Source: an uncultured virus (IMG/VR IMGVR_UViG_3300012973_000875)
Lineage: Duplodnaviria; Heunggongvirae; Uroviricota; Caudoviricetes
Reading direction: 5' to 3' (one strand)
Length of the DNA stretch: 20,000 nt
IMG/VR virus record: IMGVR_UViG_3300012973_000875
The notes under the pieces were generated by a model that was given only the letters and a program-made list of their open reading frames with translations, had not been told where the DNA came from and searched no databases. The translations under genes and the position numbers were made by a program. Each line of letters begins with the position of its first letter. The stretch's first letter is position 1. Positions 3 to 20,000 of this stretch are shown in pieces.

Positions 3-1559
3 CTCCGCGACGCCTCGGTCGTGCGGGGCCAGGAGCACCAGGACCTCTGGGCGCAGTTCATGTCGGGGCACAAGATGCCCACCCCCAAGGTGCCGTTCGT
101 CCACGAGAAGTTCGTCAACCAGTTGAAGGCCGCCGGGATCAACGTCATCCGCGAGGGGACCCGCCACCAGGTGATGGCCCTGACCGACGCCGACGTCCGC
201 GAGATGTCGGGCGACCGCGAGGTCACCTCGGGCGACACGGTCGACTGGAAGGGGGGCCTGAAGCCGATCCGGGGCGGCCTGTTCGACGAGCACCTGACGG
301 GCGGTCACAACGGCAACCGCTGGGCGCACATCAAGCTCCACGAGCCGATGCCCAACCCCGTCATGGAGGAGCCGGTCCGCAAGATCCTGGGCCTGACCGA
401 GAAGGAATACCGCGAGGTCCTGGGGGGCGACCGCCGGATCGCCGGCGCGACCGGCCCGGCGGCGATCGGCAAGGCGCTGGCGGCGATCGACGTCCCCAAG
501 ATGATGGAGCAGGCCCGTGCCGAGATCGCCGGCAGCAAGCGGGGGGCCCGCGACCAGGCGATCCGCAAGCTCCGCTACCTGAAGGCGGCCGATCGGCTCA
601 AGATCCACCCCAAGGACTGGATGCTGTCGCAGGTGCCGGTCCTGCCGCCGATCTTCCGCCCGGTCTCGGTCATGGCCGGCTCGAAGATGCCGATGGTGGC
701 CGACCCCAACTACCTCTACAAGGAACTGCTGGAGGCCAACGACAACCTCAAGACGATGTCCGGGGCGGTCGACGACACCAAGGACGAGCGGCTGGCCCTC
801 TACGACACGTTCAAGGCGGTCACCGGCCTGGGCGACCCGCTCCACCCCAAGAACCAGGAGAAGCAGGTCAAGGGGATCCTCAAGCACGTCTTTGGCAACT
901 CGCCCAAGGTGGGCGTCGTCCAGCGGAAACTGCTGGGAGCCTCGACCGACCTGGTCGGCCGGGCGGTGATCACCCCCAACCCCGACCTCGACATGGACAC
1001 CGTCGGCGTCCCCGAGACCCGGGCCTGGGAGGTCTACAAGCCGTTCCTGATCCGCCGCCTGGTCCGCCGTGGCGTGCCCCGCCAGCAGGCCGCGCAGTTG
1101 GTCCACGACAAGCACCAGCTTGCCAAGGACGCGCTGCTCCAGGAGATGGAGGCCCGCCCGGTGATCATCAACCGGGCCCCGGTGCTCCACCGCTACGGGA
1201 TCATGGCCTTCCGCCCCAAGCTCGTGAAGGGGGACACCCTCCAAGTCAGCCCGCTGATCGTTGGCGGGTTCAACGCCGACTTCGACGGCGACGCCATGCA
1301 GTACCACGTCCCGGCCTCCGACGAGGCGGTCACCGACGCCATGGAGAAGATGCTGCCGTCGCGTAATCTGCTGGCCGCCAGCAACTTCAAGGTCCACCAA
1401 CTCCCCAGCAAGGAATACGGCGGCGGCCTTTACGCGGCCTCCACGTTCCGTGATGATAAGCGGCAGGTCATGCGGTTTAGGACGAAACGCGACGCCATTC
1501 TGGCACGCCAGCAGGGACGGATCGACGTGGACCAGCCGGTCGAGATTCTGGAGGACTGA
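3..1559 (+). CDS. rpoC: DNA-directed RNA polymerase: beta C-terminus fused to the N-terminal half of beta' (5'-truncated by window edge)
   Basis: Frame is open from base 3 (LRDASVVRGQ...). PKVPFVHEKFVNQLKAAGINV resembles the RpoB C-terminus (PESFxVLxKExxSLGxNI). Beta' motifs follow: KPIRGGLFD, WAHIKL, VPVLPPIFRP, KLLG..DLVGRAVI, PVIINRAPVLHR and catalytic FNADFDGDAM (NADFDGD at 1272-1292). Confidence 0.95.
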   Translation, partial: LRDASVVRGQEHQDLWAQFMSGHKMPTPKVPFVHEKFVNQLKAAGINVIREGTRHQVMALTDADVREMSGDREVTSGDTVDWKGGLKPIRGGLFDEHLTGGHNGNRWAHIKLHEPMPNPVMEEPVRKILGLTEKEYREVLGGDRRIAGATGPAAIGKALAAIDVPKMMEQARAEIAGSKRGARDQAIRKLRYLKAADRLKIHPKDWMLSQVPVLPPIFRPVSVMAGSKMPMVADPNYLYKELLEANDNLKTMSGAVDDTKDERLALYDTFKAVTGLGDPLHPKNQEKQVKGILKHVFGNSPKVGVVQRKLLGASTDLVGRAVITPNPDLDMDTVGVPETRAWEVYKPFLIRRLVRRGVPRQQAAQLVHDKHQLAKDALLQEMEARPVIINRAPVLHRYGIMAFRPKLVKGDTLQVSPLIVGGFNADFDGDAMQYHVPASDEAVTDAMEKMLPSRNLLAASNFKVHQLPSKEYGGGLYAASTFRDDKRQVMRFRTKRDAILARQQGRIDVDQPVEILED

Positions 1560-2071
1560 TGGCCGACGACGCACCCGAGAACAACGATGATCCGGTGGCC
1601 GAGGAGCGGGCGAAACTGGCCGCGCAATGGGCCGAGACCTGGGGCGATCCCGACGATCCCCGGACCCGCGCCCGGATCGCCGACACGATCGCCGCGTTGG
1701 AGGAGGGCACGGCGACCGCGCCGGCACCCGGACTGTTCGAGGGTCCGGCGGACATCGACCACATCGTCCAGGTCGTGCTCACCGACGCGCTGCCGACACA
1801 GGTGGCGCTCAACGTGGTCCTGGGCATCGTCCGAGGCGGCCAGCGGTCAGCGATCCGCATGGCCGACCAGATGACCGCGTCGATCGATCCCACCACGGCC
1901 ACGGCGTGCGTCCGGATCGTCCACGTCGCCTCGGACGGAACGATCCAGTACAGCCTCGTCGGCGGTCCGCTCCGGTTCGCGGCGATGACCCACGCGGAAT
2001 TCCAAGCCAAGTACCCGACGCCGTCGCCTGATCACAAGGACGTGAACGATGCCGCACGCGGAAACGATTAA
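1559..2071 (+). CDS. Hypothetical protein (170 aa)
   Basis: ATG overlaps the upstream TGA (TGATG); GC3-rich codon usage like its neighbours; no recognisable motif. Confidence 0.7.
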   Translation: MADDAPENNDDPVAEERAKLAAQWAETWGDPDDPRTRARIADTIAALEEGTATAPAPGLFEGPADIDHIVQVVLTDALPTQVALNVVLGIVRGGQRSAIRMADQMTASIDPTTATACVRIVHVASDGTIQYSLVGGPLRFAAMTHAEFQAKYPTPSPDHKDVNDAARGND

Positions 2072-2843
2072 CTACGACCTGCTCAAGCTGGCCCGGTGGC
2101 GGGTGGCGAATGATCGCGACTTCGAGAAGTCCGCCGTGGTGCCCCCTGGCGGCGGAGCCCCTCCCGGTGGCGACCCCGCCGCGATGGGGGGTGCGCCTCC
2201 GGGCGGTGATCCCATGATGGGGGGCGGAGCCCCCGGCGGCATGGCCCCACCGATGGATCCCGCCGCGATGGGGGGTGCCCCTCCCGGTGGCGACCCCATG
2301 ATGGGGGGTGGCGCCCCTCCCGGCGGCGGTGCCCCGATCGATCCGGCGATGCAGATGGCGATCCAGCAGGCCGTCCAGCAGGCGGTGGGCGGGGCCGGTG
2401 GCGGCATGGCCGGCGGCAAGCCGGGGGCCGGCGGCGGCAAGAAGGCCGAACAGGCCATGCTCGACACCAAGCTCTGGCAGATCATCAAGATGCTCGCCAC
2501 GATGATGACCCACCAGGGCATCCCGGTGCCGCCGGACATCGTCGTCGGGGCTCCTCCCGACCCGGCGATGCTCCAGATGGCCAACCAGGACAACGCCCAG
2601 TCGTCGGTCCCTGGCGGTGGCGGCGATCCGAGCATGGGGGGCGGCGGCGGGGGCGGCATCCCGCCGATCGACCCGATGCAGGCCGACCCCGCGATGGGGG
2701 GCGGGGCTCCCAAGATGGCCGCCGACCGCCAGGCGCACGACCTCGGCTCGGCGTTCGACACCCAGTCGTTCCGGGCCTTGCACAGCCGCTCGGCGTCGCT
2801 GGCGGCGCTGTCCCGCCGCCGCAACCGGGAGACCGCTGAGTGA
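2049..2843 (+). CDS. Gly/Pro/Met-rich low-complexity protein, possible virion or scaffold-associated protein (264 aa)
   Basis: AAGGA SD at 2036-2040; GGAPPGGDP(AA/M)M repeats; K-x-A motifs (EKSA, PKMAA) flank the repeat region. Confidence 0.75.
   Translation: MPHAETINYDLLKLARWRVANDRDFEKSAVVPPGGGAPPGGDPAAMGGAPPGGDPMMGGGAPGGMAPPMDPAAMGGAPPGGDPMMGGGAPPGGGAPIDPAMQMAIQQAVQQAVGGAGGGMAGGKPGAGGGKKAEQAMLDTKLWQIIKMLATMMTHQGIPVPPDIVVGAPPDPAMLQMANQDNAQSSVPGGGGDPSMGGGGGGGIPPIDPMQADPAMGGGAPKMAADRQAHDLGSAFDTQSFRALHSRSASLAALSRRRNRETAE
2143..2340 (+). repeat. Imperfect coding repeats (GGAPPGGDPxxM)
   Basis: CTCCCGGTGGCGACCC occurs at 2161 and 2281; the peptide unit recurs about 4-5 times. Confidence 0.85.
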
Positions 2844-3085
2844 AAGTCGAGATCCTGCGGAACCTGCAACCACTGGTCCTCGACGCGAACCGGGTCGTCC
2901 TCCGCAACAGCTTTGGCGACCCGGTGTTCGTCTGCGTCGAGTACGCCACGAACACGTTCCTGTCCGCCAAGGCGGGGGACCCGGAGTTCGACCGGATCCT
3001 CCAGAACCTGGGGATCCAGAACACACTCGTCGTGGAAACGCTCCACCCCAAGCCGCTCGATGACTGGCGGTTCCCCGGTCGCTAG
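2840..3085 (+). CDS. Hypothetical protein (81 aa)
   Basis: GTG start overlaps the upstream TGA (GTGA); typical codon usage; globular-looking sequence. Confidence 0.7.
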   Translation: MKVEILRNLQPLVLDANRVVLRNSFGDPVFVCVEYATNTFLSAKAGDPEFDRILQNLGIQNTLVVETLHPKPLDDWRFPGR

Positions 3086-3111
3086 GTTAATTAACGTTTA
3101 TCGGGGGCAGG

Positions 3112-5058
3112 ATGCCACTCAAGACCACCGTCGGGCAGTTGCTGATCAACGAGGCGCTCCCGCCGGAGATGCGGGACTACAACCGCACGCTCGATAAGAA
3201 GGGGATCGCCAAGCTCTTCCAGGAGATCGCCGAGAAGCGGCCGGACCTCTACAAGGACGTCGCCCAGAAGCTCTCCGACGTCGGCCGCGACGTCGCCTAC
3301 ACGACCGGCGGCTTCAGCTTCGGGCTGCGGGACATGCTGCCGAGCAAGGTCGCGCAGGTCGCCCGCCAGCAGATCGAGTCCGAGGTTCGGTCGATCCAGG
3401 CCAACCCCCGGCTTACCGACGACCAGAAGGAGGAGGCGATCATCCGCGCGGTGGGCCGCCACCAGCAGACACTCGAAGGCCAGATCTTCGCCGAGGCCAA
3501 GGCGAGCAAGAACCCGCTGGCCGGGCAGATCATGTCGGGGGCACGCGGCAGCCCCATGAACCTCAAGTCGCTGCTGGGGGCCGACCTGCTCTACGTCGAC
3601 CACCACGCCCGCGAGATCCCGATCCCGGTCCTGAACCCGTACCCGCGCGGCCTCTCGCCGGTGGAATACTGGGCCGGGGCGTTCGGGGCCCGCAAGGGGG
3701 TCGCCGACACCAAGTTCGCCACCCAGGAGGCGGGCTATTTCGCCAAGCAGTTGAACCAGATCGACCACCGGCTCGTCGTCACCCAGCAGGATGACGACGA
3801 GGACGACGACGCCAACGGCGCGATTCGCGGCCTGCCGGTCGATACCGATGACGGCGACTCGGCCGGGGCCCTGCTGGCGCAGCCGGTGGGCACCTACAAG
3901 CGCAACACCGTGCTCACCCCGCGCATCCTCAAGGACCTCCAGAACCAGGGGATCAAGCGGATCGTGGTCCGCTCGCCGATGATCGGCGGGCCGGCACAGG
4001 GGGGTGTCTTCGCCCGCGACGTCGGGGTGCGGGAACGGGGCGGCATGGCCCCGCTGGGGGACCAGGTCGGCCTGGCCGCCGCGCAGGCCCTCTCCGAGAA
4101 GCTCACCCAGGGGCAGCTAAGCTCGAAGCACTCCGGCGGCGTCGCCGGGGCCGAGCAGGCGGTCACCGGCTTCAAGTACATCAACCAGTTGATCCAGGTC
4201 CCCAAGACCTTCAAGGGGGGTGCCGCGCACGCCCAGGTCGACGGCATCGTCAACAACGTCACCGACGCCCCGCAGGGGGGCAAGTACATCTTCGTCGGCG
4301 GCGAGCAGCACTACGTCCCGCACGGCGTCGACATCAAGGTCAAGCCGGGCGATGCGATCGAGGCGGGGGACGTCCTGTCCGCCGGGATCCCCAATCCGGC
4401 CGAGATCGTCAAGCACAAGGGGATCGGCGAGGGGCGGCGGTACTTCATGAACACGTTCCGCAAGGCGTACTCCGACTCGGGGATGGGGGCCGACCGGCGG
4501 AACATCGAACTGCTGTCGCGCGGTCTCATCGACCACGTCAACGTCACCGACGAGTTCGGCGACTTCGTCCCCGACGACGTGACCTCGTATTCGACGATCG
4601 AGCGGAACTGGCAACCACGCGACGGCACACGGGCGATGAACACGACCTCGGCGGCGGGCAAGTACCTGGAACGGCCGATCCTCCATTACTCGATTGGCAC
4701 CAAGATCAGACCGAGTATCATAAAAGAGCTTGGTGAATTCGGGGTCAGCAACGTCGAGGTCCATGACGATCCGCCCCCCTTCGAGCCCGTCATGATCCGA
4801 GGGGCCTCGAATCTCCAACACGACCCCGACTTCATCACCCGCCACCTCGGATCCGGCCTCCAGAAGGCCACGCTCGGTGCGGTCCACCTGGGCGGCACGA
4901 GTGATGCAAGCGGAACGAGCTACGTTCCGGCCAAAGTCTGGAATCCGACCGAGTTCGGACGGCAGGGTCTGGTCCAGGGCTGGAAGCCCAAGACCCCGTC
5001 GGTGCTGTCGACGCCTCCGACCCGAGGGCCGTCAGACAATGTCCTCTCACCGCTTTAA
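3112..5058 (+). CDS. rpoC: DNA-directed RNA polymerase beta' C-terminal half (648 aa)
   Basis: TTVGQLLIN, SGARGS, bridge helix GLSPVEYWAGAFGARKGVADTKFATQEAGYFAKQL, trigger loop VGLAAAQALSEKLTQGQLSSKHSGG, VKPGDAIEAGDVLSAG and DRRNIELLSR are all collinear with bacterial RpoC. Confidence 0.93.
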   Translation: MPLKTTVGQLLINEALPPEMRDYNRTLDKKGIAKLFQEIAEKRPDLYKDVAQKLSDVGRDVAYTTGGFSFGLRDMLPSKVAQVARQQIESEVRSIQANPRLTDDQKEEAIIRAVGRHQQTLEGQIFAEAKASKNPLAGQIMSGARGSPMNLKSLLGADLLYVDHHAREIPIPVLNPYPRGLSPVEYWAGAFGARKGVADTKFATQEAGYFAKQLNQIDHRLVVTQQDDDEDDDANGAIRGLPVDTDDGDSAGALLAQPVGTYKRNTVLTPRILKDLQNQGIKRIVVRSPMIGGPAQGGVFARDVGVRERGGMAPLGDQVGLAAAQALSEKLTQGQLSSKHSGGVAGAEQAVTGFKYINQLIQVPKTFKGGAAHAQVDGIVNNVTDAPQGGKYIFVGGEQHYVPHGVDIKVKPGDAIEAGDVLSAGIPNPAEIVKHKGIGEGRRYFMNTFRKAYSDSGMGADRRNIELLSRGLIDHVNVTDEFGDFVPDDVTSYSTIERNWQPRDGTRAMNTTSAAGKYLERPILHYSIGTKIRPSIIKELGEFGVSNVEVHDDPPPFEPVMIRGASNLQHDPDFITRHLGSGLQKATLGAVHLGGTSDASGTSYVPAKVWNPTEFGRQGLVQGWKPKTPSVLSTPPTRGPSDNVLSPL

Positions 5059-5137
5059 GTACGAACTGACGTTTCGACGCGTGCGGGACGACTACCCGCC
5101 CAAGCCGGGCACCCTCTCGATCCTCAAGGAACCACTC

Positions 5138-5782
5138 ATGGCCAGCAAGCTGGGATACACGATCGGGCTGCCCGACCTGGGCGCACTTGACGTCGAAACA
5201 CGGGAACTGATCCTCACGATCGATGGCACCGACCAGACGATCGCGATCACCAAGGACGAGTCGGGCCATTTCCCCACGCAGTACGAGATCATCGTGCCGC
5301 AGGAAGTCCATGTCTCGCTCAAGCTGGTCGATGTCGACGAGGCCGGCAACCGGTCCGAGCCGACCGATCCGTTCGACTTCGAGACGGCCGACTTCACCGC
5401 CCCGGGCAAGCCCGGCACCCTGTCGCTGATCGGCGAGGTCCGTGTCATCGACGACGAGGAGGAGCCTGGCTCCGACTCCGAGCCGGTGGATCCCACCGAA
5501 CCGGTCGACCCGACTGAGCCTGTCGAACCCGTGGATCCAACCGAACCGGTTGACCCCGTGGATCCAACCGAACCGGTTGACCCCGTGGACCCGACTGAGC
5601 CCATTGATCCGATCGAACCGGTCGATCCGACCGAGCCCATTGACCCGACTGAGCCCGTCGAACCCGTGGACCCGACTGCGCCGGTCGATCCGACCGTACC
5701 CGTCGAGCCCGAGCCGGTTGTTCCCGAGCCGGAGTTCCCCGAGCCGGAGATCGGCCCGGAACTGCCGCCCGCCCCGCAGTAA
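5138..5782 (+). CDS. Ig/FN3-like beta-sandwich segment plus acidic Pro-rich (VDPTEP)n tail; possible surface-exposed virion protein
   Basis: AAGGA SD at 5126-5130 precedes ATG 5138 (alternative in-frame ATG at 5039). VDVDEAGNRSEPT...DFTAPGKPG resembles the end of Ig-like/FN3 repeats. A long PVDPTE repeat tract follows. Confidence 0.65.
   Translation: MASKLGYTIGLPDLGALDVETRELILTIDGTDQTIAITKDESGHFPTQYEIIVPQEVHVSLKLVDVDEAGNRSEPTDPFDFETADFTAPGKPGTLSLIGEVRVIDDEEEPGSDSEPVDPTEPVDPTEPVEPVDPTEPVDPVDPTEPVDPVDPTEPIDPIEPVDPTEPIDPTEPVEPVDPTAPVDPTVPVEPEPVVPEPEFPEPEIGPELPPAPQ
5481..5720 (+). repeat. Coding tandem repeat (PVDPTE / PVD units)
   Basis: About 10 imperfect units, including an exact 27-nt tandem duplication at 5528-5554 / 5555-5581. 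Confidence 0.9.
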
Positions 5783-5811
5783 TGACGTAGTCTGTAACAC
5801 GCTGGTAAGAT
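5782..5811 (+). promoter_or_regulatory. Possible sigma70-type promoter
   Basis: ATGACG (5782-5787), 18-nt spacer, then extended -10 TGgTAAGAT (TAAGAT at 5806-5811) in an intergenic gap. Confidence 0.3.
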
Positions 5812-5815
5812 GGCA

Positions 5816-5843
5816 GGGCCAGGCGCTACCCAGCGCCTGGCCC
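5816..5843 (+). terminator. Perfect 12-bp hairpin, possible terminator or 5' leader structure
   Basis: GGGCCAGGCGCT-accc-AGCGCCTGGCCC followed by gcttgcgttcttt (weak U-tract). Confidence 0.5.
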
Positions 5844-5867
5844 GCTTGCGTTCTTTGGGAGGCCCGC

Positions 5868-6215
5868 ATGACTCAGCCCCTGGACCAGTTGCGTGAGCGG
5901 ATCGAGATCCGCGAGATCCGGTTTGGCGACGGCACCGATCGTCCCGAGATCTGGGCGGTCGGTGGCCCCGACGCCGGCCCCGAGGAGTTTCATACCCTGG
6001 CGATCGAGGGGGATGAGGAGCTTCCTCGGGTCCTCGTGGCCGGCGAAGAGACCGATCTCGACACGGCCCTGCTCTGGGTCGATACGCACAGCCCGGTCAA
6101 CCTGCACGTCCTCCGTGACATGCAGCGTGGTGGTCGCGTCATCGAGGCGGCCTTTGTTCCCGTGCGTCCTCCGGAGAGTGATCACGGCAGCGACGACGAG
6201 TCACGAGTGCAATGA
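5868..6215 (+). CDS. Hypothetical acidic protein (115 aa)
   Basis: GGGAGG SD at 5857-5862 before ATG 5868; this is the 3' part of track ORF 5442..6215. Confidence 0.7.
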   Translation: MTQPLDQLRERIEIREIRFGDGTDRPEIWAVGGPDAGPEEFHTLAIEGDEELPRVLVAGEETDLDTALLWVDTHSPVNLHVLRDMQRGGRVIEAAFVPVRPPESDHGSDDESRVQ

Positions 6216-6305
6216 GATGACCCCGCAGCGTAGTTCCTGACGTTGCGCCATTTCGCTACGATGCAGAACATCTAGGACGCAGGACGACGGCAAGGAGGCC
6301 ATCAC

Positions 6306-8942
6306 GTGGTCACGACTCGCCCCTCACGGAAGACGGAATACTGGCTCACGGTCTGCCGGAGCCACGCGGTCGACGGCCTGTCGATGACCAAGGTGGCCGA
6401 CCTGGGCGGCGACGGCTCCGACATGCCGTTCGAGCAGGCGTTCTCCAACCTGGCGCACGCCTACATCAAGGACAAGGCCCCCGGCCTGCTCGACTACGAG
6501 GTCGGGTTCCAGCTTGTCGATCGCACCGACGACAACAAGAAGGCCATCGGCGTCTTCGGCTTCAAGGTCGGCTCCAGTTGGCTCCTGGTCCCGGTCTTCT
6601 TCCTGGCCGGCGACCTGAAGGGGCACGAGATCCTCTACATCAAGAACCAGGACACCTTCGTGCCGCTGAAGGAAAACTGGATCAACTACATCCTCAACAA
6701 GAAGCCGCTGTCGCTGGGCGAGGGGGTCGGCCGCAACCCCCGCGAGATCGGCATCCGCAACCCCGACTACTCGCAGTTCGCGCATTCCCCCTCGACCTCG
6801 AAGTCGGCCGCCGCGCGAGCCCGGCGGATCACCCCCGAGGAATCGATCGAATTGGCGGCGACCGCCGCCAAGCTCACCAAGGCCGCCGCCGCGACCATGG
6901 ACGCGGCGACCTTCGAGGTCTTTGACGAGATGCCCGCCTGGGCCAAGGTCGCGACCCACTCGATGGCCGTGGCGATGGCCCGCGACCCCCGCACCATGCC
7001 GGCGATCGGGATCGACTTCCCGGCGATGCTCAAGCTGGCCGGTGTCGACGGGGCCAAGGCGACCCTGGCGATGTGCAGCGCCTACCCGACGGTCGCCCGC
7101 GCGATCGACCAGTTCTACCCCCGCGAAACGATCGACGAGGCGATCCGCCACATCAAGCAGGCGGCCACCCGCGTCTCCACCGTCCTCGACGCCGACGACC
7201 CGATGATCCCCAGCCGCTACCGGGTCCGCCGCGAGCCGCAGTCACGGCAGTCGGTCCTGACCCCGAGTAGCCCGGTCAAGCAGGGCTCGCTCCAGGTCTA
7301 CGCCTACGACCCAGGGCAGGAGTCGAATCTTCCCGCGACGATCGCGGAGAAGGACTACGATAAGCTCCTGCGGGACGGTGTCCTGATCAAGGACACCCGC
7401 AAGGGCGATGACGAGGTCTCGATCGCCTACCACACGACGACGACCCGGCAACTGGTCAACCCCGACGTCACCGGGCTCTACGACGTCATGGTCGCCCCCG
7501 ACCTGTACGAGAAGATGCTGGTGATCCTGGGACCGCACGGCCCCTACGGCCGCCGCGACTTCTGCACGGTGATCGCCCTGGACGGGGCCAAAGGGTGGCT
7601 CAACCTCCACCCGACCTACGTCTGGGTATCCAAGCAGCATTCGACCGACGACCTCCAGGACTGGGCCGACAGCCTGCCCGAGGCCGACTCGATCGACGAC
7701 GGTCAGTACGTGCTGCTCAGTCCCGAGGGAACCGACGGCACGCTGCCGTTCGTCCACGACTCGACGACCGCCGGCAAGATCATCAACGTCCACTTCGACC
7801 TGTTCAGCGGCCGGCCCCGCCAGGCGTACATGCGGGGCGAGTCGCACCAACGCAACTTCGACACCCTGGCGGCCAACAACGACGAGCAGTACGACCGCTG
7901 GAACCACGGCGAGCGGATCAACCTCGGGGGCCGCAAGGGGACGACGATCCGCAGCAACTTCGGCGACGTCTTCATCCCCAAGGGCTGGAAGAAGTTCAAG
8001 ATCGAGGAGGCCGACTACGCCGACGACCAGTGGGATGCCCCGGAATACGACGGCTCGAACCAGACCAAGCGGGTCGTCAAGAGCCTGACCGGCGGCCTGG
8101 GGCAATCGAAGACCCCGCCGATCACCGGAGCCAACGTCGTCGATGTCGAACTGGGGATCTGGCAGAAGGTCTCCTCGGTCACCGACCGGCTGGAGATCCG
8201 CGCGACCGGCACCCGGATCGTGATCGACGGTACGCCGTTCACCAAGCGGGCCGCCCTGATCGAACTGGTCCGCGATCGCGGACTCCGCGAGGTCGTGGCC
8301 CGCGACATGATCGCCGACGCCGAGGGTGCCCTGGTCAAGCGCGGGGCCTCCCGCCGCGCGTACCGCGTCCGCTACGCCCCCTGGGTCAAGGCGGCCGCCG
8401 GTGGTCCGTTCCTGACGCACGGGGCCCCGAGTGCACCCCCCTTCCCCGATCCCGAGTCCTCGGGATCGTCGTTCATGGGCACTGGGTTTGAAACCCAGCA
8501 GCCGCAGGAAATGACGATCCCCGTCGACGACATGAAGCAGGACCAGACCGAGGCCCGCGAGTCGCAGAGCCCGTACACCCCCGACCCGATGGCGGCGCAG
8601 GTCGCCACCCAGGCGGCGCAGACCGGCCAGAAGGAGATCTTCGACACCGCGATGGTCGGCAGCCTGCTCAAGACGACCCGCGATGACCTCTTGGTCGACA
8701 AGCACCTGGGGGCCCTGCTCAAGGGGCTCGACAAGATCGGCCGGCTGCTGTTCCTGCTCTACTGGCACCAGGACGAGTTCGCCGACCGCTACGGCAAGGA
8801 GGCGGTCCCCGAACTGGAGGACTCGCTCCGCAACACGTTCGAGAGCCTGGGCGACCTGGTCCTGTTCCTCAAGCAGCGGACGATCGATCCCTACCCCGAC
8901 GGCGGCACGAGTGTTGACCTGAAGGACACCGCCAACGCCTAA
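6306..8942 (+). CDS. Large putative virion/head protein (878 aa)
   Basis: AAGGAGG SD at 6292-6298, GTG start; long ORF with typical codon bias; many K-x-A motifs (KVAD, KSAAA, KAAAA, KLAG, KQAA, KRAA, KAAAG). Function inferred from context only. Confidence 0.8.
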   Translation: MVTTRPSRKTEYWLTVCRSHAVDGLSMTKVADLGGDGSDMPFEQAFSNLAHAYIKDKAPGLLDYEVGFQLVDRTDDNKKAIGVFGFKVGSSWLLVPVFFLAGDLKGHEILYIKNQDTFVPLKENWINYILNKKPLSLGEGVGRNPREIGIRNPDYSQFAHSPSTSKSAAARARRITPEESIELAATAAKLTKAAAATMDAATFEVFDEMPAWAKVATHSMAVAMARDPRTMPAIGIDFPAMLKLAGVDGAKATLAMCSAYPTVARAIDQFYPRETIDEAIRHIKQAATRVSTVLDADDPMIPSRYRVRREPQSRQSVLTPSSPVKQGSLQVYAYDPGQESNLPATIAEKDYDKLLRDGVLIKDTRKGDDEVSIAYHTTTTRQLVNPDVTGLYDVMVAPDLYEKMLVILGPHGPYGRRDFCTVIALDGAKGWLNLHPTYVWVSKQHSTDDLQDWADSLPEADSIDDGQYVLLSPEGTDGTLPFVHDSTTAGKIINVHFDLFSGRPRQAYMRGESHQRNFDTLAANNDEQYDRWNHGERINLGGRKGTTIRSNFGDVFIPKGWKKFKIEEADYADDQWDAPEYDGSNQTKRVVKSLTGGLGQSKTPPITGANVVDVELGIWQKVSSVTDRLEIRATGTRIVIDGTPFTKRAALIELVRDRGLREVVARDMIADAEGALVKRGASRRAYRVRYAPWVKAAAGGPFLTHGAPSAPPFPDPESSGSSFMGTGFETQQPQEMTIPVDDMKQDQTEARESQSPYTPDPMAAQVATQAAQTGQKEIFDTAMVGSLLKTTRDDLLVDKHLGALLKGLDKIGRLLFLLYWHQDEFADRYGKEAVPELEDSLRNTFESLGDLVLFLKQRTIDPYPDGGTSVDLKDTANA

Positions 8943-10328: not shown

Positions 10329-10567
10329 TGCTCGCCCACTGGATCACCCGCCGCGTGCGCCTGGCACGGCGGCGGTTGCGGGGCCTGGTCCCGGGCGGTC
10401 CGGTCTGCGACCGCTGCGGCCGGGCCGCCGAATCGTTCACCATGGCCCACGACGTCCGGTGCCGCGCCGTGGGCGACACGCGTCGCTACTGCTTCCGCTG
10501 TTTCACCACGATTGCCCGGCTGCGAGGCTACACTCCGACCTGGTACATCACCCCTCTGGCCGATTAA
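10328..10567 (+). CDS. Small basic protein with two CxxC pairs (putative zinc finger, 79 aa)
   Basis: TGATG coupling with the upstream stop; CDRC and CFRC motifs. Confidence 0.6.
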   Translation: MLAHWITRRVRLARRRLRGLVPGGPVCDRCGRAAESFTMAHDVRCRAVGDTRRYCFRCFTTIARLRGYTPTWYITPLAD

Positions 10568-10578
10568 CGTTAATTAGA

Positions 10579-11556
10579 ATGATTCACGAATTCCTCCCCA
10601 GCAATCCGCGTCGGCCCGTCAACTGGCGGTGGGAACGTGCCCGCGACATCGCCGAGGGAGGCGTGCCGCTTTCCCGCAAATACGACGACGTGTGGGTCCG
10701 CAAGGCGCTCCAGTTCCGCCTGGCCGACCGCGAGGCCACGCTCGAACTCGATCGGCTCTACCTCGTCGATCGGATGCCCGACGTCTTCTGGGCCTACGAA
10801 CTGGCGTTCAACGGCGACGCCGATCGCGGCAACTCGATGCGGTCGGAGATCGAGGCCCGGATCCTCTCCCGCGAGAGTGTCAACGACATCGCCTACCGCT
10901 GCGCCACCAGCCCCGAGGTGATCACCGCCTACGAGAAGCTGTTCTTCAACGTCCTCGACCGGATCGATCGGCTCGCCTACATCACCCACCAGGTCTTCAC
11001 GGCGGCCGCGTTCCAGAGCATCCACGAGCGGGACTACGACCTGCTCTGGAAGATGTTCGGCTACTTCGGCGGCCCGCATGTCCTCGACGTGCTGATCACG
11101 ACCTTCCAGAGCGTGCCGCACCCGACCCGGTCCGACGAGGTCACCGGCTTCATCCAGGACACGGCGATGAACGCGCTGCGGCGCAAGGCGCTGATCGCCT
11201 GCCAGACGCTGGGGGTCAACAGCTTCACCGCGACCGAGATCATCGCCCAGTTCATCAAGCTCCACGAGATCGATCGCGCGGCGGGCGGCGGTGGCGGCCA
11301 GCAGTCGATTTCGGCCAACGTCGAGGCCATGGTCGCGGCCCTGGGGCCGACCTTCGCGATCGGTCGCCACGCCGTCAGCGGTGTGGACTCCCCCATGCTC
11401 GCGCATTACGATAGCCAGGGCACCGAACTCACCGGTGCCGAGATGATCGAGGTCACGACGACCGGCGAAATTGACGCGGCCAAGCGGGATATGGTGGAGC
11501 GGCTCCACTTCCCGCCCCCGCCGATCAAGGACGCCTTCTCCAAGGATACGGGATGA
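10579..11556 (+). CDS. Hypothetical helical protein (325 aa)
   Basis: ATG 10579 follows an AT-rich palindromic spacer; strong coding bias from this point; stop overlaps the next start. Confidence 0.8.
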   Translation: MIHEFLPSNPRRPVNWRWERARDIAEGGVPLSRKYDDVWVRKALQFRLADREATLELDRLYLVDRMPDVFWAYELAFNGDADRGNSMRSEIEARILSRESVNDIAYRCATSPEVITAYEKLFFNVLDRIDRLAYITHQVFTAAAFQSIHERDYDLLWKMFGYFGGPHVLDVLITTFQSVPHPTRSDEVTGFIQDTAMNALRRKALIACQTLGVNSFTATEIIAQFIKLHEIDRAAGGGGGQQSISANVEAMVAALGPTFAIGRHAVSGVDSPMLAHYDSQGTELTGAEMIEVTTTGEIDAAKRDMVERLHFPPPPIKDAFSKDTG

Positions 11557-13025: not shown

Positions 13026-14073
13026 CCGGGACCCGGCCGAAGCCGCCGAGTTCCTGGCCAAGCTCGCCGTGGCCAGCCGTCGCGTGGGCGGGTTTGTCAA
13101 GGCGGCCGACATGCCTCCCGAGGTCGCGGCCGTGCTCCGTAACGGCCTGATCGGCGCGGGCGTCGGCGGCGTGGCCGGCGGGATCTCCGGGCTGCTCAAT
13201 CGCAAACGCCGCAACCCGCTCCGCACCGCCCTGACCGGGGCGTTGATCGGTGGCGGGCTGGGGGCGTCGGGCACGGCGCTCAAGGGGGTCTACGACAGCT
13301 ACGCCGGCAACGGTCCGCAGGGGGGCCCGGCGTCGATGACCGACCAGGCGGCGGCCAGTCAGGACACGGCCCTGGCCGCCGCCGCCGCCGCCAAGACCCC
13401 GGCGGCCCGGCTCATCGAGCGGATCCCCGGCCTGGGCGGACCCGCTCCGGTCGGACCCCGGAGCACAGCGGCCCAGAAGAACCACACCCTGATCGACGAT
13501 GCGAAGGGCGCCGCTGGCCAGGCCATCGACGCCGGGGGTCAGGCGTTCCAGCAGGACCCGCTCCGGACCGGTCTGTCGGTTGGTGGCGGGATCGCCGGCA
13601 CGGCCGCCGGGATCCGCAGCGGCCAGACCGCCGCACGGAACCAGGCGATCAACTCGCTGGCCACCGACGACGCGGCCATGAGCCGGATGAAGAGCCAGGG
13701 CGGTGCCGACGCCCAGGCCCAGGCGCTACGGACCCAGATGCTCAACCGCCAACTCAGCCCGACCCAGTTCCGCCAGGCGCTGAAGCAGAACCCCGCACTG
13801 GCCGCCGAATACAAGGCGACCAGGGCCCAGACCCCGAGCGTCCGCCGCAGCGCCGGTCGCGGCCTGGCCGGCGGCGCCGTCGGCAGCCTCGCCCCGTTCT
13901 TCGGCGAGCAACTCGCCCGGAAGTATCTGCGCCGGACCCTCCCGGGGTCCCCGGTCGGCCTGCAAGACCTCCCCGGGGTCAACGCACTCGGCCAGCATCT
14001 CCAAGGCGCGCGGCCGCCGCAGGCCGGTGACGCCTGGGGCCTCATCGACAGCTACAAAGGCGGTGGCCGATGA
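12994..14073 (+). CDS. Glycine-zipper protein, putative ejected / membrane-inserting virion protein (359 aa)
   Basis: AGGA at 12981 before ATG 12994; GxxxG hydrophobic hairpins GLIGAGVGGVAGGISGLL / ALTGALIGGGLGASG, GLSVGGGIAGTAAG and GLAGGAVGSLAPFFG; VKAA just before the first zipper. Confidence 0.7.
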   Translation: MTPNCPAYYLDRDPAEAAEFLAKLAVASRRVGGFVKAADMPPEVAAVLRNGLIGAGVGGVAGGISGLLNRKRRNPLRTALTGALIGGGLGASGTALKGVYDSYAGNGPQGGPASMTDQAAASQDTALAAAAAAKTPAARLIERIPGLGGPAPVGPRSTAAQKNHTLIDDAKGAAGQAIDAGGQAFQQDPLRTGLSVGGGIAGTAAGIRSGQTAARNQAINSLATDDAAMSRMKSQGGADAQAQALRTQMLNRQLSPTQFRQALKQNPALAAEYKATRAQTPSVRRSAGRGLAGGAVGSLAPFFGEQLARKYLRRTLPGSPVGLQDLPGVNALGQHLQGARPPQAGDAWGLIDSYKGGGR

Positions 14074-15545
14074 TGTACAAGGTGCTCGCACCCAATTCCT
14101 GGCGGTTCGACGACCCGATCGCCCAGATGGTCAAGGTCTCCTCGCGGGGCCTGCGGGGCCACGACCTCAACAGCTTCATCAAGCGGGCCGGCCACCGGTT
14201 CGTCGACGACCTGGCGATGGTCAAGGCGGGCGAGATCCCGGTCCACCTGATCGCGATCGGGGCCCGCGAATACTACAACGCCAACCGCAACGGCGACGGC
14301 TTCTCCGAGGCGGTCTGCGAGCGGACGCACCCGACGTTCACGAAGTACGCGCGGTTCTACCGCAACCACAAGAACAAGGACCCCAAGATCTCCTACGGCC
14401 GGGTCATCAAGAGTGCCTACCACCAGTCGATGCGCCGCATCGAACTGCTGGTCGGCCTCAACGGCGATGACCGCGCGGTGGCTGCCAACGGCGGCTTCCT
14501 GGCCGACAAGGAGATGGAGAAGCTGGCCAAGGGGGAAGACATCCCGGTGTCGATGGCCTGCCGGGTGCCGTACGACGTCTGCTCGGGGTGCGACAACCAC
14601 GCCCGCAGCCAGGCCGAATACTGCGACGGCGCCATGTGCAAGTACGGCGGGCTGAAGCACAACATCGGCCGCACCTTCGCCGATGGGCACACGCTCTACG
14701 CCGACAACACCGAGCCGACCTTCTTCGACATCTCCAACGTCTACCGTCCGGCCGACCGGATCGCCTACACCTTTGGCCGCCTGGAGAAGGCGGCGGCCGC
14801 CGGCCAGATCGTCTCCGGCGCGGCGCTGGCCGAGGAGCTTGGCCTGGAGATCCCGATCGCGATGCGGATCGACCCGAGCACCCCCGAGCGGGTGGCCCGG
14901 CAGATCAAGATTGCCCACCACATGGCCGAGGCCGAGGTCCAGGCGGCACGCCGGCAGGCCCAACCTGGTGACGCGGCGTTCCATCCGGCCGTCGCCCCGC
15001 CGATCCAGACCTTCCCCGCCGTGACCGAGTCGCGGTCGCGACTGGGCGAAACACTGCACGCGCTGGCCGCCGAGAAGGTCGCGCTGTCGCTGCGGGACTT
15101 CCTGGTCCTGGTCAGCGGCGACGTCAAGCAGGCCGAGGCGGCCCTGCCCGACGTGGCGCAGCAACTGCCCGGCGTCTTCGGCCGCCTGGTCGCCAGCCCG
15201 ACCCTCGACACCGATCTGCGGGAGAACCCGTTCAACCCGTCGCGGGCGACCCCCGCCACGGCCCTGCGGCAGTGGGCCCAGAAGCAGGCCGCCGCGCACA
15301 GCCTGGACGCCGCGCACCGCGCCCGCCGCGCGACCCTGGCGGCGATCCGGTCGGTGCCCGCGCCGGCGGTGCGCACGACGACGGCGGCCATGGAGAAAGA
15401 GGCCGCCGACCACGGCGGCGCCGAGCAACTCGCCCGCCAGTTTGCCATCTACGAGTTGGCGTTCCTTGACGCCGTCAGCGGGCCCGAAGACGCTGGTTTT
15501 CCTAACACCGCCGCTTGTCTGTCCCGAAAGAACTACCTATCCTAG
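14070..15545 (+). CDS. Prohead (capsid maturation) serine protease with Cys-rich insert and C-terminal extension
   Basis: NRNGDGF, FYRNHKN (His codon 14367), GRVIKS, VSMAC (Ser codon 14550), CSGC...C...C insert and FFDISNVYRPAD form the motif order of HK97/herpes-fold prohead proteases. Located upstream of scaffold-like and capsid-like genes. Confidence 0.8.
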   Translation: MMYKVLAPNSWRFDDPIAQMVKVSSRGLRGHDLNSFIKRAGHRFVDDLAMVKAGEIPVHLIAIGAREYYNANRNGDGFSEAVCERTHPTFTKYARFYRNHKNKDPKISYGRVIKSAYHQSMRRIELLVGLNGDDRAVAANGGFLADKEMEKLAKGEDIPVSMACRVPYDVCSGCDNHARSQAEYCDGAMCKYGGLKHNIGRTFADGHTLYADNTEPTFFDISNVYRPADRIAYTFGRLEKAAAAGQIVSGAALAEELGLEIPIAMRIDPSTPERVARQIKIAHHMAEAEVQAARRQAQPGDAAFHPAVAPPIQTFPAVTESRSRLGETLHALAAEKVALSLRDFLVLVSGDVKQAEAALPDVAQQLPGVFGRLVASPTLDTDLRENPFNPSRATPATALRQWAQKQAAAHSLDAAHRARRATLAAIRSVPAPAVRTTTAAMEKEAADHGGAEQLARQFAIYELAFLDAVSGPEDAGFPNTAACLSRKNYLS

Positions 15546-18247: not shown

Positions 18248-18302
18248 GTCGTACTTGGTTTAAGAACTTGGTTTTCCCACAGTGACACGGAGGTCGCGAC
18301 CC

Positions 18303-19238
18303 ATGGCGACGGCTCTCAATCGCAGCGAAGTCCAACTGCTCAACGAGACCCTGTTCGAGCAACTCGACAACCCCGGCATGGTCAAGTCGGCCATCGATGC
18401 GGTGAACGACTTCACCCGCATCAAGATGCGTGAAGACGGCTTCGCCCGGCGGATCATGCCGTCGATCGAGATCTCCAACGAGGAACTCGACCGCCAGGTC
18501 GGCGACGACAAGCCGGTCAAGGTCGTCGACAAGGAGCCCGATAGCCCGGCGGCCATCTCGGTGCCGTTCGCGACGCTCCCCACCTCGGTCTACATCCGTG
18601 GCCCCCGTTACAAGGTCGCCTTCGACCGGATCGTGACGCCCCGGTTCACCAAGGACGTCGACGAGCTACGCACCTGGGTCATGGACATCCGCCAGGTCCT
18701 CTCGGACAACGCCATCAAGGACATGCTGGCCGAAGAGGACAGCAAGTTCCTGGCGGCCGTGAACCGGGCCCTGATGGCTCCGGACACCCCCCTGCCCTGG
18801 TCGGGCGTCCCGCAGTGGGAAACGATCTACGGTGGCATCACCCGTGACACGGTGATGGACGCCATGAAGATCATGCCCAAGACGGACGCACACCTCGAAG
18901 CCGCCACCCTGCTGATCAACAACGTCACGTTGTACGAGATCATGAAGTGGGGCCGCGACGAGATCGGTGGCGACCTGAGCCAGGACCTGTTGCGGAACGG
19001 CTGGTCCGAAGCCGAGTTCATGAACCGCCGGTGGGTCGTCACGATCAAGCGTGACTTGGTCCCCGACGACACGATGTACATGTTCGCGGACCCCAAGTTC
19101 ATCGGGAAGGCTTACCTTCTCGAAGATACCACGATGTATATAAAGAGGGAAGCTTTTTTAATGGAGTTCTTCGCCTATGAGACGATGGGCATGACCATCG
19201 CGCACACAGGCGGCTTGGCCAGGGCTGACTTCGCCTAA
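18303..19238 (+). CDS. Putative major capsid protein (HK97-like fold, 311 aa)
   Basis: Strong GGAGGT SD, ATG 18303; size, position at the end of the head operon and a strong terminator directly after. REDGFARRIMP and MLAEEDSKFLAAV resemble HK97-fold N-arm and backbone-helix segments. Confidence 0.75.
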   Translation: MATALNRSEVQLLNETLFEQLDNPGMVKSAIDAVNDFTRIKMREDGFARRIMPSIEISNEELDRQVGDDKPVKVVDKEPDSPAAISVPFATLPTSVYIRGPRYKVAFDRIVTPRFTKDVDELRTWVMDIRQVLSDNAIKDMLAEEDSKFLAAVNRALMAPDTPLPWSGVPQWETIYGGITRDTVMDAMKIMPKTDAHLEAATLLINNVTLYEIMKWGRDEIGGDLSQDLLRNGWSEAEFMNRRWVVTIKRDLVPDDTMYMFADPKFIGKAYLLEDTTMYIKREAFLMEFFAYETMGMTIAHTGGLARADFA

Positions 19239-19384: not shown

Positions 19385-20000
19385 TTGGCACAGGATGTTG
19401 AGACGCAGAAACGCAAGAATCGCGAGCGCGCAAAGCAGCGACGCGAGAGCGGCTTATGCGGGAATTGCAATCAGCCGAAGGTTCCCGGTAAATCGCTGTG
19501 TGAGAAGCACGTTGAAGAATCCGCAGAGCGGTCGCGACAGCGGTACTGGCGACGACGCCAGCGACAAGTCTGTACGCTGTGCCCTGTCGATACAGCCAAG
19601 CCTGCTGAAGAGGGCAAGTCGGCGTGCCGCGCGTGCCTGGACAAGCAGAACGCCGCGACCGCAACGACGCGGCCGGACAAGGCAGCGTCGCACAAGGCGT
19701 ACAAGCAGGCGACCGCAGAGTCGCGAAAGCAACGCGGCGTCTGCATCGGCAACGGGTGCGAGCGGCCGGCACGAGACGGCCGGGTCACGTGCGGCGAGTG
19801 CGCCAAGACACAGTCCGTACGCAGCAGCAAGCGGTGGCGGAAGATACGGCTCCTGGTCATTGCCAAGTACGGATCGAAATGCGCATGCTGTGGCGAGGCG
19901 ACCATGGAGTTCCTGCAAATCGATCACATCAACGGCGGCGGCAATGCACATCGTCGCGAGATCGGGAGGAGTCGGCTTTATATCTGGCTGATCCGGAACA
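19385..20000 (+). CDS. Zinc-finger-repeat HNH-type endonuclease (3'-truncated; absent from ORF track)
   Basis: TTG 19385 with ACGGAG SD. My translation MAQDVETQKRKNRERAKQRRESGLCGNC...CEKH...CTLC...CRAC...CIGNGC...CGEC...YGSKCACCGEATMEFLQIDHINGGGNAHRREIGRSRLYIWLIRN is open to the window end; CxCCGE...IDH is the start of an HNH domain. Confidence 0.85.
   Translation, partial: MAQDVETQKRKNRERAKQRRESGLCGNCNQPKVPGKSLCEKHVEESAERSRQRYWRRRQRQVCTLCPVDTAKPAEEGKSACRACLDKQNAATATTRPDKAASHKAYKQATAESRKQRGVCIGNGCERPARDGRVTCGECAKTQSVRSSKRWRKIRLLVIAKYGSKCACCGEATMEFLQIDHINGGGNAHRREIGRSRLYIWLIRN

Follow-up and report, generated by a model that had tools for sequence, protein, structure and literature searches.

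Genes of a tailed phage RNA polymerase in which beta is fused to the N-terminal part of beta' and the remainder of beta' is encoded separately

The RNA polymerase genes of the window

This report deals with two genes for a multisubunit RNA polymerase (RNAP) in a stretch of DNA of 20,000 nucleotides (the window) from the uncultured virus IMGVR_UViG_3300012973_000875, a member of the Caudoviricetes. The first gene contains beta and the N-terminal part of beta' (beta'-N) in one open reading frame (ORF), and the remainder of beta' (beta'-C) is encoded by a second gene downstream. The window has a G+C content of 68%, and every long ORF is on the + strand. The following features define the two genes:

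3..1559, + strand: last 518 codons of the beta + beta'-N fusion gene (100% identity to P0006; Pfam)
1272..1292, + strand: codons for NADFDGD, the catalytic Mg-binding motif of beta' (P0001 residues 424-430)
1557..1561, + strand: TGATG, the stop of the fusion gene overlapping the next ATG; conserved beta' break at about residue 553 of Salmonella beta'
3112..5058, + strand: beta'-C gene, 648 aa (P0002; Rpb1 domain 5 at E 1e-20, TTxGQ segment, domains 4 and 5)

The ORF at 3-1559 (product P0001) is open at its 5' end, contains PKVPFVHEKFVNQLKAAGINV near its beginning and has the C-terminal end ...GRIDVDQPVEILED (...VEILED). In Pfam searches P0001 matched Rpb1 domain 2 (E 4.9e-26), with a weak, sub-threshold match to Rpb1 domain 1. 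Its beginning had been called RpoB-like in an initial annotation of the window; a BLASTP comparison of the first 110 residues with the C-terminus of Salmonella beta was not significant (E = 36), and because the fragment alone gives this value, the RpoB identity rests on the full product, P0006 (1442 aa), which is encoded on the window's own contig of 73,596 bp and was recovered in a protein collection. P0006 is identical to P0001 across all 518 residues, its residue 925 being residue 1 of the window, and its Pfam matches are Rpb2_6 (E 2.7e-50), Rpb2_3 (E 1.5e-5) and Rpb2_2 (E 9.8e-5), followed by Rpb1 domains 1 and 2. The Rpb2 domains are located upstream of the window in the same ORF, which bears out the RpoB assignment.

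Aligned to solved chains, P0006 corresponds to beta over residues 23-990 and to beta' over residues 1047-1439, and because the match to beta chains extends up to residue 990, the end of beta is placed at about residue 66 of the window. The N-terminus of beta' begins at about residue 58 of the window (BLASTP against residues 22-63 of Salmonella beta', E = 0.01); the beta/beta' junction is nearly seamless, with a linker of about 10 residues. The beta' part of the fusion protein (chain 1) consists of the clamp and the catalytic double-psi barrel bearing NADFDGD, and this motif is invariant in 23 of 23 aligned members of the clade. No exact 50-base match for the start of the window was found in the metagenome or viral contig collections, and no near-identical DNA was found by megablast among phage records.

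The product of the second gene (P0002, chain 2) has the N-terminal residues MPLKTTVGQLLIN and covers the region from the TTxGQ segment through the bridge helix and trigger loop. Its residues 3-481 align with residues 577-1081 of a solved beta' of 1188 aa (8i23_D), on which P0001 ends at 561 and P0002 begins at 577; on one PHROG profile of unsplit beta' with 1216 positions, P0001 occupies 139-540 and P0002 611-1101. When 15 split and 10 fused relatives were aligned together with Salmonella beta', the stop of the first and the start of the second chain were found to abut, with no beta' residues missing. The break is just N-terminal to the TTxG(Q/R) segment, at a variable surface segment directly after the beta' barrel, where Salmonella beta' contains a short extra segment. 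The initial annotation had described a phage multisubunit RNAP with beta fused to beta'-N and a separate beta'-C; Pfam, the full P0006 and P0002 confirm this, and NADFDGD, the end of the first ORF and the restart of beta' about 1.5 kb farther on are located where it had placed them.

The two chains (P0006, 1442 aa, and P0002, 648 aa) together contain 0 cysteines, and therefore the two usual Cys4 zinc sites of beta' cannot exist. Cysteine is also absent from several other proteins of the virion module (g264, g490, g518, g142 and g318).

Conservation of the break among related loci

At least 575 stretches in IMG/VR encode relatives, and the locus counts given here refer to the best 80 of them plus the loci of Salmonella phage Arash and Vibrio phage D69 (n = 82). 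A tblastn search of phage records yielded 52 records, in four of which at least 80% of P0001 was covered (Salmonella phage Arash and Vibrio phages D69, D181 and D148, with 30-31% identity). At least 120 protein clusters had at least 58% identity to P0001, most of them with lengths of 1436-1526 aa.

The beta/beta' junction is inside one ORF in all 82 loci. In 46 of the 82 the ORF ends no more than 3 codons away from the stop found in the window, and the remaining 36 are read through for 453-847 further codons across beta'-C, resulting in one beta-beta' protein of about 2000 aa. Of the 46 split loci, 32 encode beta'-C on the same strand at a distance of 660-5934 nt downstream; the available DNA of the other 14, at least three of which are short, did not reveal it. 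Other breaks farther upstream, in beta, occur in nine loci. Pfam matches are in accord with the two forms, i.e., beta + beta'-N in L003, L007 and Arash, and beta + whole beta' in the 2026-aa protein of L045. A second IMG/VR scan with 80 loci yielded 35 fully fused cases, nine that are fused and split, and 36 with a beta' ORF that does not include beta. The initial annotation had called the architecture distinct; the rarity that this implies does not hold, the layout being common to Arash, D69 and many metagenomic contigs.

As the window is a metagenomic-style fragment, it has to be asked whether the break stems from faulty assembly or from a recent disruption that produced a pseudogene, or whether the genes are cellular rpoB/rpoC on a host contig. 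This is extremely improbable. The related loci are independent, with identities from 31% to 66%, and the stop has the same position in 46 of the 82, which excludes chance or an artefact of assembly. Both halves have long open frames and invariant catalytic residues. The protein groups with phages and is separated from Salmonella beta' by a branch with a support of 99 (starred; first tree, see below), the neighbors are capsid and virion genes and not ribosomal-protein genes, and one scan of 185,579 species genomes with P0002, with a sensitivity limited to close relatives, found no relative. Thus, neither an error at the junction nor a place inside a bacterial clade, both raised in the initial annotation as possible objections, is indicated.

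Several loci deviate in other ways. In L015, L017, L024 and L025 a further break with an insert of 0.75-2.3 kb is found at about residue 952 of the fusion protein, near the end of beta and about 20 residues before the point at which the window starts. In three loci of the fused clade (L169, L141 and L150) the matches to beta and beta' are adjacent in separate ORFs (in L169, for example, 5307 is the last position of beta and 5428 the first of the beta' ORF); these may represent unfused survivors, but also frameshifts or errors of sequencing. In L009 (15798-19907) beta'-C is lengthened to 1369 aa, and the extra C-terminal part consists of AAA/kinase-like, acylphosphatase and DUF5661 domains.

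The genes between the two RNA polymerase genes

The gap between the RNAP genes comprises 1552 nt and is filled by three co-oriented ORFs, each of which overlaps the preceding stop:

1559..2071, + strand: 170-aa ORF, orphan
2049..2843, + strand: g264, 264-aa Gly/Pro/Met-rich protein, mostly low-complexity, no cysteine (jackhmmer family)
2840..3085, + strand: g81, 81-aa protein (hidden Markov model (HMM) family, split clade only)

None of the three contains a Pfam domain. For the 170-aa ORF no PHROG match and no homologue among the 82 related loci were found either. The initial annotation had described all three ORFs as unrelated, but g264 and g81 form a conserved cassette. Across the split clade, members of the g264 family lie between the RNAP genes (32 ORFs found with jackhmmer, with a high compositional bias). 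With the g81 HMM, 31 loci were found to encode a homologue. Every one of these loci belongs to the split clade, and the g81 homologue follows the fusion gene, inside the gap wherever the locus includes beta'-C; none was found in fused-clade loci, Arash or D69. The shortest gaps, of about 1 kb (L005-L008, L011, L013 and L031), contain these two families alone. The cassette thus encodes a disordered Gly/Pro/Met-rich protein of about 240-264 aa and a beta-sheet protein of about 81 aa, which occur only between the RNAP genes of the split clade. An AlphaFold2 model of g81 has five strands and one helix (predicted local distance difference test value 82), and no PDB structure was matched with Foldseek at E <= 0.001. 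A complex prediction with three chains, g81 and the RNAP pieces, scored 0.13 (mark 0.32), which speaks neither for nor against binding.

One might speculate that the break persists owing to this cassette, its products serving the polymerase specifically, for instance as adaptors for packaging or ejection or as factors of its assembly, and the four genes forming a virion-transcription module. The idea is distinctly doubtful; if true, an enzyme with neither alpha nor zinc nor cysteine would be delivered in pieces and would reassemble in the host.

The two halves of beta' could in principle be rejoined into one chain during or after translation, through a split intein or through ribosomes that bypass the 1.5-kb gap. 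Inteins are indeed abundant in the RNAP genes of the relatives: in-frame inserts of about 1 kb with intein-splicing, Hint or LAGLIDADG domains were found in five of six oversized RNAP ORFs tested (the intein-bearing genes are those of L005, L018, L020, L028 and L039). However, no Pfam intein domain was matched in P0001, P0006 or P0002, and the chain ends are beta' sequence that abuts directly in fused relatives, and therefore there is no room for intein halves. In addition, the gap consists of three real-looking ORFs, two of them in conserved families, and the two products of Arash were identified as separate proteins (PMC10585845). Rejoining is thus very improbable.

A homing endonuclease was also considered as the direct cause of the break but is not supported, although inteins are common elsewhere in these genes: HNH, GIY-YIG and LAGLIDADG Pfam domains were present in 0 of 93 gap ORFs from 26 loci.

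Two further observations concern the gap region. An AT-rich element, GTTAATTAACGTTTAT, is present at 3086..3101 on the + strand and ends 11 nt before the start codon of beta'-C. A related element at 10561-10577, directly before an ATG at 10579 on the + strand, has the words TTAACGTT and TTAATTA in common with it. These are the only such AT-rich sites in 20 kb, and each word occurs three times over both strands (expected 0.04). The element at 3086-3101 is a candidate regulatory or promoter site, and the second one suggests that the gene listed at 10459-11556 really starts at 10579. No common promoter motif was seen upstream of beta'-C in 26 relatives, and the element of the window was not found in them. 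The second observation is a cysteine-rich ORF after the capsid gene (19385-19999, 14 Cys in 205 aa) with a weak match to an HNH PHROG (E 2e-4); its only homologue among the loci (L003:11567-12175) is in the RNAP gap of the closest relative, and it looks like a mobile gene.

Phylogeny and order of events

Two trees were calculated with quick searches, the first with 86 rows and 513 columns and the second, with wider sampling, with 49 rows and 385 columns. In the first tree, the branch with a support of 99 (starred) sets the family apart not only from Salmonella beta' but also from two other phage beta' proteins. The window is within a clade of 44 rows, all of which are split (97, starred), and the other clade contains all 36 fused rows together with Arash, D69 and L051, whose break deviates from that of the other split forms by no more than about 2 residues. 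An approximately unbiased test did not reject a single clade of all 47 split rows (p = 0.43). In the second tree, the family is monophyletic against the outgroups (97, starred), in which beta' is unbroken; the fused rows branch first, and all 12 split rows, together with two fused ones, form a nested group with weak support (89). Because the trees place split forms inside fused ones, the full beta-beta' fusion probably came before the split. The most economical reading would be that separate genes gave rise to one complete beta-beta' fusion, which then underwent one cut.

Comparison with known RNA polymerases

The closest cultured counterparts are the RNAPs of Arash and D69. Arash gp206 (1525 aa) and gp216 (606 aa) likewise represent beta + beta'-N in one ORF and a separate beta'-C downstream, and D69 has ORFs of 1527 and 609 aa with the same layout; the genes are also present in D148 and D181. 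In Arash, gp206 is annotated as 'beta' and follows the portal gene, and gp216 is located 4.8 kb downstream. The Arash-type RNAP genes are between portal and capsid genes, and several downstream virion genes are homologous to those of the window. They differ from the window in the catalytic motif, which is AADYDGD instead of NADFDGD, and in the gap, which contains other genes, with neither the g264 nor the g81 family detected. In the Arash records and the excerpts of the accompanying paper, the genes are named beta and beta', and the layout is undescribed (PMC10585845).

Fused relatives such as L045 and L050 (about 2000-2100 aa; 34-39% identity) have the same beta-to-beta' junction as the window and contain Rpb2_3/6 and Rpb1_1/2/5 in one protein; unlike in the window, there is no stop after the beta' barrel. 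In Helicobacter and Wolbachia, beta is joined head-to-tail to the whole of beta', and the fused chain works with alpha and omega. The order of beta and beta' is the same in the phage protein, but here beta' is cut after the barrel, and alpha and omega are not detectable in the relatives. In cyanobacteria and plastids, beta' is likewise split after the double-psi barrel, into gamma (RpoC1) and beta' (RpoC2), but cyanobacterial beta is not fused to gamma. The end of P0001 is opposite residue ~552-554 of gamma (624-625 residues), and residues 50-367 of P0002 align with residues 32-363 of RpoC2; the phage break is about 70 residues N-terminal to the cyanobacterial gamma/beta' break, in agreement with the initial annotation, in which the two had been distinguished.

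The RNAPs of phiKZ and AR9 are devoid of alpha and omega, and virions contain one of the sets; their beta' is split after the barrel, reportedly at the position of the cyanobacterial break (PMC7598289). Unlike in the window, beta is also in two to three pieces, nothing is fused, and the sequences are far more divergent. For beta' of Vibrio phage Va2 no close relatives were found in IMG/VR. In the excerpts of the literature searched (including PMC7481178, PMC10585845, PMC7598289 and PMC7824862) no phage fusion of beta and beta'-N with a separate beta'-C is described.

The initial annotation had suggested a link to published deep-branching metagenomic phages. Under the name mReC, Weinheimer and Aylward (2020) reported uncultured tailed phages with bacterial-like beta/beta' genes beside structural genes, which were selected by matches to COG0085 and COG0086 of at least 800 aa each and by NADxDGD in the latter (PMC7481178). 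The window differs from this rule in that NADFDGD belongs to the protein that includes beta, and the second piece of beta' has 648 aa. In each of the 104 phage rows of Supplementary Dataset 2, one protein is listed for beta (900-1563 aa) and another for beta' (887-1391 aa), and at the terms searched no mention of fused or split phage subunits was found in the main text (PMC7481178). Three loci that were matched to mReC rows by metagenome id (L102, L104 and L137) have a beta' ORF of 901-937 codons, with beta elsewhere, and are 26-27% identical to the window's beta'-N. In the second tree they form, together with 12 similar rows, a clade that excludes 27 fused or split rows (98, starred), a placement that refers to one 385-column region and few mReC rows. 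Because all mReC rows are of the two-protein type and because of this separate clade, the window's family is provisionally placed outside the published mReC set, and the suggested link was not upheld.

It should be noted that for several mReC contigs two RNAP sets (suffixes a and b) are given, with subunits of about 1360/1005 aa and about 1000/900 aa on a single contig (PMC7481178), which recall the pairs of virion and non-virion enzymes of jumbo phages.

Genomic neighborhood

The RNAP genes are inside the head module, in the same orientation as the capsid gene. Three downstream genes have homologues among the structural genes of Arash:

6306..8942, + strand: g878, 878 aa, homologue of Arash structural gp218 (E 5e-8)
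14070..15545, + strand: g491, 491 aa, homologue of Arash structural gp222 (E 3e-35)
18282..19238, + strand: g318, Arash gp226 homologue and major capsid protein (E 4e-42 with BLASTP and 5e-38 in a genome search; E 1.2e-6 for the major head protein PHROG)

The identity of g318 confirms the proximity to head genes that had been noted in the initial annotation. The three genes are in the same order as gp218, gp222 and gp226 in Arash, all three of which were detected in virions (PMC10585845). A homologue of g878 follows beta'-C in 26 related loci. On the upstream side, a 658-aa ORF of L003 showed no significant similarity to the Arash portal protein and no PHROG match. Between beta'-C and g878 (5059-6305) the gene calls are uncertain; an ATG at 5138 opens a plausible frame of 214 aa to 5782, which is overlapped by a minus-strand ORF at 5092-5640 with collagen-repeat matches, probably a G+C-rich antisense artefact.

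In purified Arash virions, Gp206 was the top virion protein with 3516 spectra, and Gp216 was represented by 1210 spectra (PMC10585845). Neither alpha nor omega was found in the window, and the Pfam families of alpha (PF01000) and omega (PF01192) were matched in 0 of 4 whole records of relatives, versus 14 of 14 control genomes.

Discussion

The domain content of the two genes, the fusion, the position of the break and its conservation, and the context of a virion module are likely to be explained by an RNAP of a large tailed phage that is composed of two chains, beta + beta'-N and beta'-C, and is packaged for early transcription. Chain 1 would provide the complete beta, the linker and beta'-N, and chain 2 the rest of beta'; they would associate non-covalently to form a catalytic core of the bacterial type. 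Because of the homology to Arash virion proteins, the lack of cysteine and the alpha- and omega-negative relatives, we infer a two-chain core devoid of alpha and omega that is probably packaged in the virion, the latter by analogy with Arash. The enzyme would most likely be delivered together with the DNA and transcribe early genes without the host polymerase. The covalent link between beta and beta' probably replaces the platform for assembly that the alpha dimer provides; work on Helicobacter and on engineered E. coli reportedly indicates that a beta-beta' fusion can replace alpha-guided assembly. The cut most likely arose once, by insertion of genes into an ancestral, fully fused beta-beta' gene.

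Several points weigh against this reading. Both trees are quick, carry only Shimodaira-Hasegawa-like approximate likelihood ratio test (SH-aLRT) support, and are each rooted on a single bacterium. Arash, D69 and L051 are nearer to the fused clade in the first tree (support 85-88, not starred), and therefore at least two splits at the same site or a re-fusion would be needed; repeated cuts at a hot spot, or re-fusion, may account for the same data. As to packaging, no sign of it was found within the window itself, it is known solely for Arash, which is about 31% identical, and the authors of the Arash study allow that the RNAP proteins are carried over into purified particles as abundant intracellular enzymes (PMC10585845). 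The whole records searched for alpha, omega and sigma are those of relatives of this phage. Moreover, sigma70 region 2 was detected in Arash (two matches) and D69 (one match), unlike in the closer relatives G001 and G002 (0 of 2), one of which is rated 100% complete.

An alternative would be a two-chain polymerase that is made only in the infected cell for middle or late genes, like the non-virion RNAP of phiKZ, and stays out of the virion; its position among the head genes would then reflect no more than the history of gene order. Packaging of the RNAP of this phage is deduced from homology and context, which together with the possible carry-over in Arash leaves room for this alternative, and the co-orientation of the block with the capsid genes suggests late expression. 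However, a packaged protein itself needs late co-expression with the head genes, and the Arash chains rank first and fifth by virion spectral count, above the capsid protein (PMC10585845). The lack of cysteine in 2090 residues also argues against an enzyme restricted to the cell, as does the single RNAP set in the records of four relatives, which would be left with no other starter of transcription independent of the host. A purely intracellular role is therefore unlikely, although it has to be taken more seriously than the other alternatives, and a packaged two-chain enzyme remains the preferred explanation.

To our knowledge, all cellular RNAPs need an alpha-type platform that joins beta and beta'. 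The family described here appears to solve this task by a covalent link, and one branch tolerates a clean cut directly after the barrel, which would yield a natural minimal enzyme of two chains and about 2090 residues without a cysteine. In sequence, the family is much closer to bacterial RNAP than the enzymes of phiKZ or of the crAss type, and with Arash a cultured member is available for biochemistry. The family is large and barely described, and its layout adds a variant to those of the multisubunit RNAPs; because it is not listed in the mReC survey, the cellular-type RNAPs of phages are more diverse than that catalogue suggests.

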